A stretch of DNA of 64,000 nt from Nitrosopumilaceae archaeon (GTDB lineage: Archaea; Thermoproteota; Nitrososphaeria; Nitrososphaerales; Nitrosopumilaceae): assembly GCA_965207375.1 (NCBI GenBank), contig CBDBMG010000003.1, forward strand, positions 416,001-480,000. The letters run 5' to 3'. Both the position numbers and the translations under genes were made by a program. The stretch's first letter is position 1; each line of letters opens with the position of its first letter. The notes beneath the pieces were generated by a model that saw only the letters and a program-made list of their open reading frames with translations, was not told where the DNA came from and searched no databases. Below are positions 1 through 55,320 of the stretch, in pieces.

Positions 1-424
1 GATAACTACACTGTTAGAAATGGGTAGCTAGTTGTGATAACTACGAAGGAGTTATCCTTTGAGGAGAATTTTTGGTCTGAAAAACTCCTTTAGTACGTAG
101 CTAGCTACATATATTTAATAGTGTATGACATCAAGTTGAGCAGTTTGTGGCTACATAGCTACCAAAGTGCTAGGTATAATTTGAATAATAAAACTTTCAA
201 AGTGTAGATAGCTACGTATATTCAGTATCTATAATATTATTATAACGTAGCTAGCTAGTTATAGCTATAATAATAGGTAAAAGTTGATTTTTAATTTAAT
301 TAATTTAATCAAAACATGTACAACTAAACCACAAATACATATAGCTAGTTATTATAGCTATACATTATAGCTAGGTAACTAAATAACTAGGTCTAACAAA
401 TCAGTTATCAATGGGCGGTTATAC

Positions 425-1132
425 TTAGGCGGATTGACAAAAATTTTCTACCGCGACGGCAGGACGAGAGTAGCGTACGGAAGGTGAACAAGCATACTTC
501 TGATTTGGCTTAAACATTTCAACCAAAACTTTGTCAGCAATCTCCCATAATGGACGACTAACTTTAGCATGAAGACAAAAGGAATTGGTAAATAATCCTC
601 CGACAGCTCCCTCCCTCTTATCGTCCCAAGCAGGAATCTCGCTGTTAGCTCCACAGAAAAAGGCCACGGATTTTTCCAAGCGGGTATCCAACCTCCACGT
701 GTTTATCATTCCCCCAGAATGACAAGCGTCGATGATTACGTAAAGGGTTTTTCCCGATGGTAAATATTCGTCAATGTCTTCAGTAAGCTCCTCGTCTTTA
801 TACCACTCGTTGTAGTCTTCGACAATACACAAGCATTCGGTGTTGTTTCGCTTCATTCAGTTCCACTGATGACCCCCATGACCACAATTGAAATATATGA
901 GGAATTCCTCCTCGGTCTTGGTGAGAAAATCGATGAAGGTTTCACGATATTCTTTCTTTGTACTGTAAATCTTGCGGGAAGGATGTTTCGAAAGTTCCTC
1001 CGTGTTCACCAGCACATTTGAGATTCTAAATCCATTGCTATCACAGAGTTTAACCATGCTTTTAATGTCAGGACGGTTATCAATGAAGGGGTAGCATTTT
1101 GCACCAGTGATCAACGCAGCGGTTGCAGACAT
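425..1132 (-). CDS. Metacaspase (peptidase C14), prodomain-less, ~235 codons, interrupted by one in-frame TGA at 857-859 (pseudogene, readthrough or split gene)
   Basis: ORFs 857..1144 and 425..856 are in the same frame (...AAC TGA ATG AAG...). Motifs in order: AALITG (first strand), DIKSM (S1 Asp), STKKEY, YFNCGHGG (catalytic His), YVIIDACHSGG (catalytic Cys), GGLFTNSF and SPSV (p10 region). First true ATG at 1132; 1144 is TTG. Confidence 0.85.
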
Positions 1133-1429
1133 GACTAGATACAATATACGTATGGTAGCTTAATCTATAGTTCTATGACTACAGTGAAACAACTGTACTG
1201 TAGATATAGCTATTTATATAGCTTTATTAGCTCTACCGGCGAAAACCACAATTATAGCTACCTAGCTATATATAGCTATATAGCTACGCGTTTTTGTATA
1301 ATGAAATCGCATTTCCGCTTTTTATTGCAGCCCAAAAACTATAAAAAAGGCAGAAACTTATGTGCTGGTATATCAACATCCAGCGTGTTCAAAGCAGTTA
1401 TTTAGCTATACAGCTGAAATTCTTTCGAA
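1133..1429. promoter_or_regulatory. Putative bidirectional promoter between metacaspase and EF-hand ORF
   Basis: ~300 bp spacer between divergent ATGs, with TATAAAA (+, 1340-1346) and TATATAAA (-, 1213-1220) each ~80-90 nt upstream of an ATG. AT-rich context weakens the call. Confidence 0.4.
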
Positions 1430-1549
1430 ATGTCTACTACTCTCGCTAATGCAAAGAACCTTGCTATGTCCATATTGGACGTCGATGGTGACCACAGGAT
1501 ATCTCGCAGTGATTTTGAGAAGGCTATGAATAGAAATGATGCCAAATAG
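1430..1549 (+). CDS. 39-aa single EF-hand micro-protein (MSTTLANAKNLAMSILDVDGDHRISRSDFEKAMNRNDAK)
   Basis: Translated by hand. 12-residue loop D-V-D-G-D-H-R-I-S-R-S-D then F, flanked by predicted helices. A at -3, in-frame TGA 15 nt upstream, TATAAAA at 1340-1346. GTAAAG at 1549 could be a splice donor extending the protein. Confidence 0.7.
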   Translation: MSTTLANAKNLAMSILDVDGDHRISRSDFEKAMNRNDAK

Positions 1550-2064
1550 TAAAGCTAATAGTTGAATGTCCTATAAAAACAAAACATTAAGGTTTTTATC
1601 ATATTATAGTTTTTAAAGAATTAACTTACCAGGTGACGAAGGGCCCATTCGTGTGGCTTCAATTGTTATAACCAAACATCACTATATACATTCAATTAAT
1701 CCATCCTAGCTCTCCATGCATTTACCTATCTACAAACCTTACAATCGCTTACCACGATTCATAGTGGCTTCCTCGGGCGGGCTTCCTGGTTGACCAAAAA
1801 CAACATTTGGCTTTTTGATAGCCAACCACTTCCTTCCTTGAATAGAGCTGAGATGCGGAAGCCCAATCTACACGATTCAACATGCCGTGCCATTCAGCAC
1901 AGTGTATACACGCGATCGTTGTCCAACGTCACGGGCACGTGCTTGCACATTCCATACCGCCCCTTTACTGGATGTGCAAAACAATTGGCACTAATTAGAG
2001 TAGATTAATAATCGAGTGTAACTCGTGAATTATAGGGAGTTTTAAGAAATCCTACATTTAAAAT

Positions 2065-4061
2065 GAATCTCGTTATGTACAGATTTGATCACATCACGTG
2101 ATACGCATATTATCACGTACAAGTTAAACTTTGGTTGATTTTAGTGTACCGCAGGTGAACGTGGATTACCACACGTGTCGAAGGTTACTGCTACTTGAAG
2201 CCGATTTCGTTGTTGCGTAGGGGTGCATGGTTTTAACTGGCAGGAACAGTTGGTAGATTTATGACGTCCATTCCAGCACTGAGTTAAGTTATGCATCATT
2301 ATTATAATGTATGATTGATTTATCTATGTTCAGCTAAATATCATTTATTCTGTTCATAAGACTAAACCTAAGCCATATATAGCTTGGCCTGAGTGGTTCC
2401 CCCAGTCTTGTATTAGATTATGTATGCTAATTGAAGCCGATAATAATACTGTAGATGATTGCTATCCAATATTAATCTGTTATTTGTTATAGATGGTATC
2501 CAGTTGCAAGTCAGGTTTCTAACACTTATGGAGGCAATTATTAGACTCCAGTTGATATTGCGATTATGGAGTGATGCCGTGTGTATAATATTGAGCTATA
2601 TATGAATATAGTAGGCTTGTTGTTATGTATATGTTGTTCAACTTGCAGTCTATAACTGAGATAATCGTTCACATAATTACTGAGTCATCAACGTAGGTGT
2701 AGAATAATATACTATATGTAATGGACTCTTCAATGCCGGTATTGTCTTGCACTAATTTTTAGTCTGCCTCAGTGACACTTTCAACTTAGGCAAGTAAACT
2801 GTCATTGTTATTAAAAAATCCCTAGCATACTATTTATGCCCTAGCTTAAAAACTGCCTATTGATCAGCTGTAAACTGCGTTTACAGTTTCTACTGAAGAG
2901 AAATTAATGATAAATGACATAGGGTCCGGCATAATCACCAAGTTGTCTAGCAAGATAGTTTATACAAATGTAAGAGCCTTTTCCCACTATTGATGTTGCA
3001 ATTTATACTTCATTCTTCCGAGCAAAACATCCATGAGCAGTCAAAAGTTGATTGGTTGAACTGGACATTGGAAAAGAATAATATTACGTACATCTCCAGA
3101 AATCTGAAACCATGATTAGCCTCTCAATCATCACTCTTTTTATTATTATTATTGTAAAACCTCATAAATTTCTAGATAGCTACATATGTGATTGTAAGAG
3201 TCATTTAAATTGATAATGGTTGCAGTTTCAGGAGGTAACTTGTTCCAGAGGCTAATGGAGTTTGGGAAGAAACTATACTTGTATTGGTCAGTATGCATAG
3301 CGGGTTGTACAAATTTCATGGTATGTCCTCTTGTGATACGGGGAGCTGGGATGATATAGTCCAGTAAATTGAGTTCAACAAGACCATGGATGATCTTATA
3401 TAACATTATGAGGCATAGTTCTCTGTGTTGGGCTTTGACAGATCGCCACGTGCACTGTAGGAAAGTGAGCATAGCTGATACACTGCTAGTTCTGTGATGA
3501 TCTGACATTATAAACCGAGCTGCTCATTTTTGGATAGCTTCTAATTTATTGATATGATAGTTAGTGTGTGCACTCTATGTATAATAAATTATGTTATGCA
3601 TGCAAATATCAATCAGGCCATGTCATTCCAGTAATACAGGTAGTCCAAATGTGTGATGGTACATCAGCACTGGCATGCATCTTAACCTGCAAAAGAAATA
3701 AATATGATTATATTTACTTAATATACACACCCTGGTAATTCCTGCCAAGGCTGCCTAATACGAGACTGGAGTTACACATAGCTTAGTGTCATGTACAGAA
3801 TAAATATTTAGCTGAACATAAATCAATTACTCTGTTTAATGCATAACTTAACTGTTAAAGATGTTCTGGAATGGGCGTCATAAATCTACCAACTGTTCCT
3901 GCCAGTTAAAACCGCCCCTACGCAACAACGAAAGTAGCAGTACCTTCGACACGGGTGATAATCCACGTTCACCTGCGGTACACTAAATCAACCAAAGTTT
4001 AACTTGTACTTGATAATATGCGTATCACGTGATGTGATCAAGTCTGTACATAACGAGATTC
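2065..4061. mobile_element. Non-autonomous DNA transposon with ~215-bp TIRs and 8-bp TSD TTTAAAAT
   Basis: GAATCTCGTTATGTACAGA... at 2065 is the reverse complement of ...TCTGTACATAACGAGATTC ending at 4061. TTTAAAAT at 2057-2064 and 4062-4069. Superfamily unresolved (MULE/hAT-like). Confidence 0.85.
3137..3570 (-). mobile_element. 3' fragment of a non-LTR retrotransposon (CR1/L2-group ORF2 C-terminus) nested in the TIR element
   Basis: RTSSVSAML...LIMLYKIIHGLV...TRGH...YKYSFFPNSISLWNKLP, followed by a (TAA)n tail at ~3137-3153. Confidence 0.8.
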
Positions 4062-4152
4062 TTTAAAATGATCTTCATCGCACGGCGAGTCGACTGAAGG
4101 TTAGTATATTAATTAAGACTGCTTAGTTTTCGAGATAATTAATTACCTCATG

Positions 4153-4241
4153 CATTAATCATACTTTCGTCATACATTAATCACACTTTCGTCATACATT
4201 AATCATACTTTCGTCATACTTAACGCCCTTTCGTGACGAAA
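4153..4241. repeat. Three 22-bp tandem repeats (CATTAATCATACTTTCGTCATA) plus palindrome TTTCGTGACGAAA
   Basis: Direct reading; ~200-280 bp upstream of the MYND ORF. Confidence 0.8.
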
Positions 4242-4429
4242 TTCTAACCGCAATTTTTGTTTTTCTTAGTACTTGGTTTATAATATAATATATATCTTAG
4301 TACTAGATAAGATTAAACAACTAGCTAGCTAAATAGTGAAAGTGTAAAAACAACTTACGTAATTAAATAATTCGTTTCGCGGCACGTGACTATATTGTGA
4401 GGAAGACGTAATTTGTTTCTCTGAGAGAT

Positions 4430-6826
4430 ATGGCAATGGATTTGATGGAAGATGCGGTGAAGATTGGCCAAGAGGAGTTGCACAAGCGGCTCAGGCAGTT
4501 AATGAAGCTGGACAAAGACGAGAAATACTTCACATCACTTCTGTTCCGTCGAATGTTTGAAGAAGTAAAAAAGTGTAAGAACTGCGCCTTTCATGGCATA
4601 ATGAAAAAGCCTGCTCGCACTTATGAACGAAATTCTTACGGATCTGGCCTGGAACTTTATTTATCAAGCAAGGGAGTGGTTGGCAAACATATAATCCAGT
4701 GTCCCTTGTGCTCTGAAAAATTTGGTGCCTGGTCGTTTGAGAAACAAGACCTTCCGCCGGAGTCGCACAAGATATACGGACTAGAGGTACGCTATTATAC
4801 TCATAGGATGATGCAGAGTGCGTTAGTTTTTGATGTGATGGATCTCGTGAAAGTTGAAGAGATGGTGGACCCAGCGAAGAGGAAAGATAATTATGAGAAA
4901 GTAGGGGAGTTTATGTTAAAGAATGCGCGCAGGGTGAGTGAAGAATGGTGCTCCCCAGATAATGCTGAAGTGAGACAGAGTATGCTGTTTTGGTTATACG
5001 ACCAAACCATCTTCTCAGTGGAACAAAAGGCTGCCCACCATACTTTCTCAGACGAGAGCCGGGAACGTTACGACAGGACTGTGGAATCTTTTCTTCACAA
5101 TCTCGATAAGACAGAATCTCTACTGCGGCTGTTGAAAGAAACACTTTTTGATCATCCAACACATCCAGTATTTATGGTCTGGCTTTGTATTGCAATGACC
5201 CAAGTTGAGTTATTTTCAACCCTCATAAAGTTCTATGACCCAAAAATATTCATGAATTCGGATGACAAAGAATTTATAAATGTGCGACATCAATACAAAT
5301 CTCTTAATATGCCTAAAGAGATCAAGAAAATACCGATTGTATTAATGTTAATTGAGATGCCACGATTTTTTCATTATACTGATTTTGTTCACCTCAGGGC
5401 AGGGAAGAAGTCATATCCCACTAAAGAATTGGAGGTGGACAGGATTATGAGGAGTTGTTTGTCTAAAGAAGGTTTGAAAATGGCAATTGGTGGAGCGCAA
5501 GGAAAGAAAGTATTGAAGTCTGTTTTACAGCAAAGCCGTTTAGTCAAAAAGAGAATGTTTAACTACAGAATTTTTGACTGCTTGGATTATGTAGAATATT
5601 GTGAAGACTTTGAGAAAGAATTTGTTATAAAATTTCACAAGTTATCGATGGCAGATCAGTATAAACTGTGCCTGCGTGCCATCAAGATAGGTGAGAACTT
5701 TTCCAATGTGAAGTGTGCCACAGAACTGCCAAACCCTATTGTTCTTAAGGACTTATTTCAGGAGTCTTTCAATAATAATGAAGAAGTTATAGATGATGAC
5801 TTAGTCCCCTTCAAGGATCAACCAAAGAAGCATAGAGACATGAAAGAAACACTTGATATGCTTACTAAAAAGTCACAGTCAATTGTATTAGGACCTCCCT
5901 TGGAGGAAGAGTTGGAAATGCATTGTAATGGTAGTATGCATGTGGGTTATGATGCAGACTTGCCAAAACCAAAGGTGGAATCTAGTTCTGAAAGTAGCGA
6001 TAAAGATGAACCTATTCCAAAATTAGGTTCCACATTACCATTGGATGAGATTATGGATCGTGTAAGGGAGACACTAGCAGAACGTAACCTTTCCATTCCC
6101 GAGCAGTACATGCCGCATCCTATAACACTTCCTGCTGGATTAGTTCCGTCTGTCTCCAACGGTGGTAATGTCCAAGCCTTGATGCTGCCGGTACCACCTG
6201 CTGGATCCAAAGATGCTGAAGATTTAGCAGAGACAATGTCGAAATGTCTTCCTATGTACAGTCAGGAATCAACAGATTGGGCTAATTCTGTCATGAAGAG
6301 TCGTAATGTTTATACCATACACGTTCCGAGTACCGGTACAAGAAATCCTGATGGTACCTTACAAGTGACTTCCAAGATGTTTTATCATGGCAAGGAGACG
6401 CTCAGTACCACGCTGATGAACTTAGGCAACCACGCACACGTTGCTCAAATGGCCGCTGCTGCTACAAGCCAGCCCAGTGATGACACAAGCCATCCTAAAC
6501 AGGATAGCACAAATGATACGAAAACTCCAAAAGATGATACAAGTGATCTGAAAAAAGAGGCAAGCACTTCAAATAAAGATGTGACTAAAATTCCTACTGA
6601 AGATGACATTGCTACTGACACAGTGAAGGTAGCAGGGAAGGAGAACCATAAACAGGACATTGTGAAGAGAAAAGGGAAGATACCTCGCTCTTGTAGTCAC
6701 TGCAGTTCTACTCCAGAGAAGTTGCTCACATGTAAAGCATGTCGTTCAGTTGCATACTGCAGCAGTAATTGTCAGCGTGCTCATTGGAAACTCCACAAGA
6801 AAGATTGCCAACAACTTCAAGAATGA
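4430..6826 (+). CDS. Intronless 798-aa protein with C-terminal zf-MYND domain
   Basis: Uninterrupted 2.4-kb ORF. CSHC...CKACRSVAYCSSNCQRAHWKLHKKDC is a canonical MYND finger. N-terminal CKNC...CPLC pair; acidic low-complexity linker before MYND. Confidence 0.9.
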   Translation: MAMDLMEDAVKIGQEELHKRLRQLMKLDKDEKYFTSLLFRRMFEEVKKCKNCAFHGIMKKPARTYERNSYGSGLELYLSSKGVVGKHIIQCPLCSEKFGAWSFEKQDLPPESHKIYGLEVRYYTHRMMQSALVFDVMDLVKVEEMVDPAKRKDNYEKVGEFMLKNARRVSEEWCSPDNAEVRQSMLFWLYDQTIFSVEQKAAHHTFSDESRERYDRTVESFLHNLDKTESLLRLLKETLFDHPTHPVFMVWLCIAMTQVELFSTLIKFYDPKIFMNSDDKEFINVRHQYKSLNMPKEIKKIPIVLMLIEMPRFFHYTDFVHLRAGKKSYPTKELEVDRIMRSCLSKEGLKMAIGGAQGKKVLKSVLQQSRLVKKRMFNYRIFDCLDYVEYCEDFEKEFVIKFHKLSMADQYKLCLRAIKIGENFSNVKCATELPNPIVLKDLFQESFNNNEEVIDDDLVPFKDQPKKHRDMKETLDMLTKKSQSIVLGPPLEEELEMHCNGSMHVGYDADLPKPKVESSSESSDKDEPIPKLGSTLPLDEIMDRVRETLAERNLSIPEQYMPHPITLPAGLVPSVSNGGNVQALMLPVPPAGSKDAEDLAETMSKCLPMYSQESTDWANSVMKSRNVYTIHVPSTGTRNPDGTLQVTSKMFYHGKETLSTTLMNLGNHAHVAQMAAAATSQPSDDTSHPKQDSTNDTKTPKDDTSDLKKEASTSNKDVTKIPTEDDIATDTVKVAGKENHKQDIVKRKGKIPRSCSHCSSTPEKLLTCKACRSVAYCSSNCQRAHWKLHKKDCQQLQE

Positions 6827-53649: not shown

Positions 53650-55320
<1,671 letters not shown>

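Follow-up and report, generated by a model that had tools for sequence, protein, structure and literature searches.

A probably decayed caspase-like protease and EF-hand gene pair in animal-like DNA assembled with an archaeal chromosome

The 64,000 nt stretch analyzed here (the window) corresponds to positions 416001–480000 of contig C4 in assembly GCA_965207375.1, which is deposited as Nitrosopumilaceae archaeon and consists of four contigs with a total of 4.3 Mb. Close to its start, a caspase-like gene (peptidase family C14) and a short open reading frame (ORF) with an EF-hand loop diverge from a common spacer. The locus is very likely what is left of one copy of a conserved two-gene unit from an animal-like genome, with both genes disabled. 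One gene would have encoded a compact, prodomain-less C14 peptidase of 235 amino acids (aa), the other, divergent and intronless, a four-EF-hand protein of about 190 aa with a Cys-rich tail. The protease is stopped at codon 92 by a change of the TGG-to-TGA type, and the EF-hand gene is cut after codon 38, where high-copy repeats start, with the remaining approximately 150 codons lost. In all likelihood nothing works at this locus, because the 91-aa and 143-aa halves of the protease each lack one catalytic residue and the lone EF-hand lacks a pairing partner.

The caspase-like gene lies on the minus strand (425–1132) and was identified by translation and Pfam. Joining of the minus-strand ORFs 425–856 (143 aa) and 857–1132 results in a single caspase-like frame of 235 codons, which ends with a TAA stop (425–427). 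This frame is interrupted at codon 92 by an in-frame TGA (857–859), which is directly followed by an ATG (854–856). The TGA falls between the codons for the catalytic His (GHG motif, residue 85, 878–880) and the catalytic Cys (DACHSGG motif, residue 137, 722–724), and no uninterrupted chain carries both residues. In an alignment of 21 sequences the His and C137 were nearly invariant, and D135 was invariant. An earlier reading of the window by a model that saw only the letters and their ORFs (the sequence-only reading) had described a prodomain-less metacaspase and had quoted the loop after the catalytic His as HQWN*MKRNNTE, with the asterisk as part of the loop. The frame is indeed caspase-like and has no prodomain, but the asterisk is a real in-frame TGA that disrupts it. 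A genome search with the protease also reported '1 TGA' inside the match to its own locus. With X in place of the stop, the window frame scored 27.2 bits for PF00656 (cut-off 21.4). The 143-aa piece alone remained under the cut-off with 16.6 bits, and the intact relative P0028 (235 aa) reached 36.7 bits. A look-up in a protein atlas returned 'caspase domain' only.

A word-based search resulted in 15 protease relatives from 171 candidates, the best being 93% identical. The cluster at an identity of at least 90% has 14 members. Two of them, of 91 aa and 143 aa, come from the window itself and stand as separate protein records on a 932,339-bp contig, the size of C4. The other 12 are intact (234–265 aa), and all of them have Trp at codon 92. 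The simplest reading of this comparison is that a TGG-to-TGA-type change, presumably a recent nonsense mutation, produced the stop. At sites that are invariant in the other 12 members, the window copy shows three private changes (Y82N beside GHG, G to S, and R to C). The closest relative, P0028, has 94.9% identity to the window protease and is its sister in the tree, with weak support (88/60). The TGA site was covered exactly, with 0 other letters, by contigs of the runs X1 (824–1021) and X8 (838–988). No protease paralog was found in this assembly. Pattern matches to related loci occurred in genome contigs (23 stretches) and metagenome contigs (198), of which tblastn confirmed 0. We concluded that the caspase-like gene is a probable pseudogene.

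The 39-codon ORF on the plus strand (1430–1549) contains a canonical 12-residue EF loop, DVDGDHRISRSD (1478–1513). Its score for Pfam EF-hand_1 was 21.1 bits (E 2.1e-4) and did not reach the cut-off of 25.4. The EF-hand identity was accepted because the ORF shows 78–94% identity to residues 5–37 of EF-hand proteins with a length of 189–197 aa. The search for EF-hand relatives covered proteins of 75–2000 aa and resulted in seven relatives from 10 candidates (189, 191, 140, 192, 197, 197, and 78 aa). Over residues 5–37, the ORF was 94% identical to P0017 (189 aa) and 78–82% identical to three other relatives; one unrelated residue and a TAG follow. Residues 38–189 of P0017 had no tblastn match anywhere in the 4.3-Mb assembly, and no paralog of the EF-hand gene was found there. 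The sequence-only reading had also proposed to look for paralogous divergent pairs by tblastn; this assembly contained no second copy of either gene.

Intact EF-hand relatives are single ORFs of about 190 aa with four helix-loop-helix units, in which loops 1, 3, and 4 are canonical and the second loop is degenerate. In proteins of the P0017 type, three EF loops exceed the Pfam cut-off. Their best solved relatives were 2hps (E 3.7e-14, residues 11–159) and 1q80 (E 2.7e-13), the Renilla coelenterazine-binding protein and the Nereis sarcoplasmic calcium-binding protein (SCP), with a match over nearly the full length. EF-hands act in pairs, and only the first unit of the paired four-unit architecture (about 175–190 aa) is present at the window locus. 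The ORF and its loop are located where the sequence-only reading had placed them, but judged by these alignments, the ORF is the 5' stump of a gene for an SCP-like protein of about 190 aa and not a stand-alone micro-protein.

The likeness to intact EF-hand genes stops after position 1542 (breakpoint 1542–1543, plus strand), and the tblastn alignments stop at window base 1543 (genome position 417543). An intron at 1542 was ruled out: in the intact relatives an ORF runs through this position without interruption, and there is no GT at the window break. From about 1600, the summed contig depth rises to 10–300 times that of the flanks and defines a high-copy repeat block (1600–4400). This block includes an element of approximately 2 kb with inverted ends at 2055–2365 and 3783–4070, which are 82% identical. 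A joint from 2056 to 4062, the deleted form, was present in contigs of four out of four runs. Such joints would be expected if a DNA transposon had left empty sites or had given rise to derivatives with deletions.

The spacer between both genes (1133–1429) has a length of 297 bp and contains one TATA-like box per strand together with several TAGCTA-type palindromes. The plus-strand box TATAAAAA (1340–1347) is located 90 bp ahead of the EF-hand ATG; the minus-strand box (1211–1220), which reads TATATAAA/TATAAATA at 1220/1218, is located about 86 bp ahead of the protease ATG. The divergent spacer of about 300 bp with a TATA-like box on each strand had been noticed in the sequence-only reading, and it was found as described.

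The surrounding DNA differs from an archaeal chromosome. Contig C1 (2.16 Mb) is covered to 69–84% by long ORFs and carries archaeal small- and large-subunit rRNA genes. C2, C3, and C4 (0.43, 0.78, and 0.93 Mb) have a long-ORF cover of only 7–25%, and they harbor transposon ORFs of the THAP+DDE (Harbinger-type), Helitron, Ty3-type, hAT, and MULE groups. The hexamer TAGCTA is 7–8-fold over-represented in C2–C4 and three-fold under-represented in C1. None of 40 related prokaryote genomes (0/40) contained the protease gene. Stop-codon reassignment as a cause of the low coding density was rejected, since dropping any one stop codon failed to restore C2–C4. We concluded that the window most probably represents animal-like, transposon-rich eukaryotic DNA that was co-assembled with an archaeal chromosome; it was labeled animal-like because of the THAP-bearing transposons and the invertebrate-type EF-hand protein. 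The assembly is a composite of the archaeal C1 (about 80% ORF cover) and the 2.14 Mb of C2–C4, which are gene-poor and have a different oligonucleotide signature, and this composite nature is invisible to marker-gene figures for completeness and contamination. In C2–C4, TAGCTAGCTA occurs 225–394 times above the expectation from base composition. The TAGCTA palindromes cluster in intergenic DNA, e.g., at window positions 1–420 and 1200–1290, including the spacer between both genes.

Relatives of the two genes gave strong indirect support that the protease and the EF-hand protein belong together as families. A family scan of 1.84 billion representative proteins resulted in 10 representative clusters at E below 1e-30. 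In P0064 (430 aa), residues 1–234 represent the protease, followed by a short linker, and the remainder is the EF-hand protein. Such single-ORF fusions make up seven clusters (419–447 aa, 68–80% identical to P0064, 44 member sequences), to which the partial P0016 can be added. In the tree, a single clade (88/88), nested among stand-alone forms, unites six of the seven fusions; with midpoint rooting only, this would be compatible with a single fusion event. Close stand-alone proteases were found on contigs of nine distinct sizes besides that of the window, and five of these (138,128; 1,743,586; 319,918; 1,236,206; and 133,258 bp) also bear EF-hand relatives. Contigs of 138,094; 3,685; 1,259; and 939 bp carry the protease and no EF-hand relative. 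The sixth shared-contig case is a contig of 4,231 bp on which parts of a protease (P0010) and of an EF-hand protein (P0041) occur.

Some observations do not favor such a link. That protease and EF-hand relatives share a contig was deduced only from equal sizes in bp. The contigs of distant stand-alone proteases (clusters of P0003, P0004, and P0007) showed no EF-hand relative among the 10 candidates, and the parts are co-linear in the fusions as opposed to head-to-head at the window locus. A complex prediction for a P0028-type protease and a P0017-type EF-hand protein gave no verdict in either direction (score 0.00, 'no answer'). The AlphaFold2 model of the fusion P0064 had a predicted template modeling score (pTM) of 0.52, with a predicted local distance difference test (pLDDT) below 50 for the linker 210–249 and no confident placement of the domains relative to each other. 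With intact relatives elsewhere fused or on shared contigs, a real link of the protease to a calcium sensor probably exists in this animal-like lineage.

The C-termini of both forms carry distinct motifs. A C-x-I-M/L end of the CaaX type, a predicted prenylation signal, was present in six of the seven fusions and also in P0016. The stand-alone EF-hand proteins P0017, P0018, P0020–P0022, P0037–P0040, and P0063 have C-terminal Cys runs with up to nine consecutive residues, and some of these tails continue into 10 Pro and C-W-C-W. The Cys runs of the stand-alone proteins and the CaaX box of the fusions suggest lipid anchoring or metal binding.

We used the intact P0028, and not the broken window copy, to assess the caspase/hemoglobinase fold. 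The P0028 model (pLDDT 83.5, pTM 0.86) shows one compact caspase/hemoglobinase domain with its first strand from residue 4. In a Foldseek search with this model, metacaspases and the MALT1 paracaspase domain ranked first. VIA-align placed metacaspase-4 at Z 18.5 (root-mean-square deviation 3.2, 213 residues) and metacaspase-9 at Z 18.2 (208 residues), and legumains, caspases, and GSU0716 of Geobacter were within about 1.5 Z. As to the p10 region, which bears the Ca2+-binding '280-loop' in metacaspases, residues 150–235 of the model align with the C-terminal parts of metacaspases; residues 146–151 and 215–225 have a pLDDT below 50. Compared to solved structures, the family profile matched metacaspases only, over residues 22–144 (best for metacaspase-4 with E 5e-7, followed by metacaspase-9, T. 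brucei MCA2, and metacaspase-1). There was no match to MALT1 at the level of sequence profiles. According to the available excerpt of PMC5756287, metacaspase types are distinguished by an N-terminal prodomain (I), a long p20-p10 linker (II), or a p10-before-p20 order (III). The window protease, with 235 aa, no prodomain, no long p20-p10 linker, and a single compact domain, shows the marks of none of the three types. Likewise, the stand-alone (split) proteases of 233–238 aa consist of the caspase-like domain only. The distant protease relatives P0069 (528 aa) and P0071 (419 aa) have long N-terminal extensions without an EF-hand domain, with one weak match to DUF5648, which indicates that the protease domain is combined with different partners.

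In solved metacaspases, the Ca2+-binding residues form an acidic site that follows the catalytic His and the Cys motif. In the alignment to metacaspase-4, ETGEDDDTGFDE stands opposite NWVKRNNTE-C, with W-V-K-R-N-N-T facing E-D-D-D-T-G and MIN facing LID, and the acidic stretch after the catalytic His is missing. The loss of the acidic cluster, already seen in the sequence-only reading, is confirmed by this comparison and holds family-wide and not for the window copy alone: the family has W-N-W-x-K/R-N-N in place of the acidic post-His stretch, and behind the Cys motif Asn takes the place of Asp. KDEEL still has its D/E pair. D22 and D135, which align with the Asp residues of the metacaspase specificity pocket, were invariant in 21 sequences, and because of this invariance we infer an Arg/Lys specificity of the protease family.

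In the intact relatives, the EF-hand module would bind Ca2+ at loops 1, 3, and 4. It would be fused behind the protease through a flexible linker of about 40 residues or be encoded next door, and prenyl or palmitoyl groups (the putative CaaX or poly-Cys lipid anchor) would hold it at the membrane. There, the module may switch, control, or localize the presumably Arg/Lys-directed C14 protease, acting in cis if fused to it and in trans if the pair is split. We infer Ca2+ binding, lipidation, substrate preference, and regulation in the intact relatives from the features described above. Taken together, the intact relatives may represent a lipid-anchored, Ca2+-switched caspase-fold system of an invertebrate-like animal, in which an SCP-like domain that is either fused (CaaX tail) or encoded by an adjacent gene (poly-Cys tail; divergent at the window locus, the only copy with readable DNA) replaces the lost acidic site; we put this forward tentatively, as a possible rather than a probable arrangement.

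The sequence-only reading had proposed a working two-part module at the window locus, with a 39-aa single-EF-hand micro-protein that senses Ca2+ for the neighboring prodomain-less metacaspase. The divergent arrangement with one TATA-like box per strand, the canonical-looking EF loop, a protease family without the acidic stretch of the Ca2+-dependent metacaspase-4, and the linkage of both protein families in relatives are all in line with this idea. It is nevertheless highly improbable for the locus itself, since the protease frame ends prematurely at codon 92, the ORF corresponds to the first 37–38 residues of proteins of about 190 aa and ends after a single unrelated residue, it contains one EF-hand of a kind established to act in pairs, and the assembly contains no second copy of either gene. 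The idea of a two-part protease/EF-hand module fails at the locus because of the stop and the truncation, but it survives at the family level in the form of the fusions and shared contigs, with a protein of four EF-hand units as the partner instead of a single-EF-hand peptide. The sequence-only reading had itself considered that the EF-hand segment may be a relic of an unrelated calmodulin-like gene. It is a relic, but of a gene linked to the protease and not of an unrelated one. A whole or two-piece protease could also be made at the locus if the TGA was decoded as selenocysteine or Trp, or if translation restarted at the next ATG. The relatives have Trp at codon 92, TGA-to-Trp is the commonest reassignment, and the ATG immediately after the TGA leaves the 143-aa ORF, which also speaks against a simple loss of the gene. 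On the other hand, reading TGA as a sense codon raised the ORF cover of C4 from 0.148 to 0.229, which is about equal to the effect for TAG (0.225). An Rfam scan of the window revealed no family at the gathering score, selenocysteine-insertion elements included. Selenocysteine normally substitutes for Cys and not for Trp, so it is not expected at codon 92. We know of no working precedent for a caspase fold in which a break separates the His strand from the Cys strand. We consider decoding or restart hardly credible.

The remaining explanation assumes a split pair that is functional in the population, with the stop and the truncation private to an individual or haplotype, or with the truncation being a mis-join at the repeat. 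Several observations point in this direction and weigh against a decayed locus. The window copy is barely more diverged than P0028 (branch lengths of 0.029 and 0.026), and its three private changes fall inside the range of 0–9 seen in intact members. This low extra divergence and the few private changes imply that the decay is recent or confined to one individual. The TGA was confirmed in X1 and X8 only; both runs are labeled with one and the same organism, and the source sample may be among them. Of the 12 runs from four studies, none is listed as RNA, and the four runs compared to the window consist of contigs of unrecorded kind. Among the listed pieces of X4, none extends over 857, and the X9 contig that covers 857 has 11 other letters, whose places are partly shown. 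No contig among the listed rows bridges 1542/1543: record 5 of X1 ends at 1516, and the match of record 12 of X4 stops at 1539. The X9 contig departs from the window after 1542, and its next letters, read in frame by eye, give ADQTGRKPAD as in P0017. With X9 and probably X4 leaving the window at 1539–1542 and X9 continuing with an intact reading, the truncation may stem from an assembly mis-join at the repeat. However, short-read contigs of two runs carry the TGA exactly. The X9 contig may originate from an allele or a paralog, the latter since reads were accepted from 85% likeness, and the 932-kb contig continues for 500 kb past the site without the missing 150 codons. We regard a pair that functions in the population as unlikely, and we favor the decay of both genes.

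Other features of the window and its contig were noted alongside. An intronless ORF of 798 aa at 4430–6826 on the plus strand encodes a C-terminal MYND zinc finger (41.5 bits) with no other family match, and it is single-copy by contig depth. At 53842–54618, ORFs of 226 and 255 aa overlap on opposite strands. On the plus strand, the ORF consists of a Pro-Thr repeat (Pfam PT, 84.7 bits), so a simple-sequence tract is more probable here than two genes. Within 16 kb at C4:791282–807196, ARAGORN detected a cluster of five tRNA-Arg genes, two with TCG and three with CCT.

In itself, the window locus matters little, being most likely an ordinary pair of pseudogenes of recent origin. It points to a small family in which fusions and shared contigs repeatedly connect a caspase-fold protease with a calcium-binding protein. 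If gating by the EF-hand module applies, the family would shed light on the regulation of domain-only caspase relatives in early animals, would represent a second, independent route to a calpain-style Ca2+-switched cysteine protease on the caspase fold, and would offer natural fused and split versions of one system for direct comparison. If the system is indeed Ca2+-switched, the two-part Ca2+-gated protease imagined in the sequence-only reading would truly exist in its split form. The literature already describes Ca2+-dependent metacaspases, C14 proteins of early animals that consist of the domain only, and orthocaspases of archaea with an EF-hand motif. Full-text searches, which returned excerpts, revealed no animal case in which a caspase-fold protease is fused to, or paired with, an SCP-like EF-hand protein, and as far as these excerpts reach, the caspase-fold/EF-hand protein family has probably not been described so far.

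While the Ca2+-dependent metacaspases (metacaspase-4 of Arabidopsis, MCA2 of T. brucei, and Yca1 of yeast) are the best matches by sequence and fold and share the GHG and D-x-C-H-S-G motifs and the Asp positions of the specificity pocket, the window family differs by the lack of a prodomain, a long linker, and the post-His acidic stretch, and by Asn after the Cys motif. With the acidic Ca2+ stretch lost, calcium sensing would fall to the EF-hand module. The SCP and the Renilla coelenterazine-binding protein correspond to nearly the whole length of the intact EF-hand protein. To our knowledge, they are stand-alone buffers or ligand carriers, with no poly-Cys or CaaX tail and no link to a protease. 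In calpains, a cysteine protease is joined to an EF-hand domain, and a further EF-hand subunit is encoded separately. The logic of a Ca2+-switched protease would be the same, but a papain fold with a penta-EF-hand in calpains stands against a caspase fold with an SCP-like domain here, so the likeness is an analogy and not homology. The archaeal orthocaspases, for which the excerpt of PMC6426788 lists seven proteins with an EF-hand motif, also combine a C14 protease domain and EF-hand(s) in one protein. They are prokaryotic, whereas the family described here has a whole four-unit SCP-like domain with a lipid-anchor motif, occurs in animal-like DNA, and also uses a separate neighbor gene. Type 2 paracaspases or 'metacaspase-like proteases' are domain-only C14 proteins of porifera, placozoa, ctenophora, and cnidaria, according to the parts seen of PMC5978004 and PMC5756287. 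Like the split forms of the window family, they consist of the caspase-like domain only, without prodomain, death, or Ig domains. The profiles of the window family match metacaspases and not MALT1, and in the same excerpts there is no word of a fusion with, or a partner from, the EF-hand proteins. The type 2 paracaspases or metacaspase-like proteases are still the nearest named category for the window protease, and p20-only proteases are described in the available text of PMC5756287 as the most neglected members of family C14.

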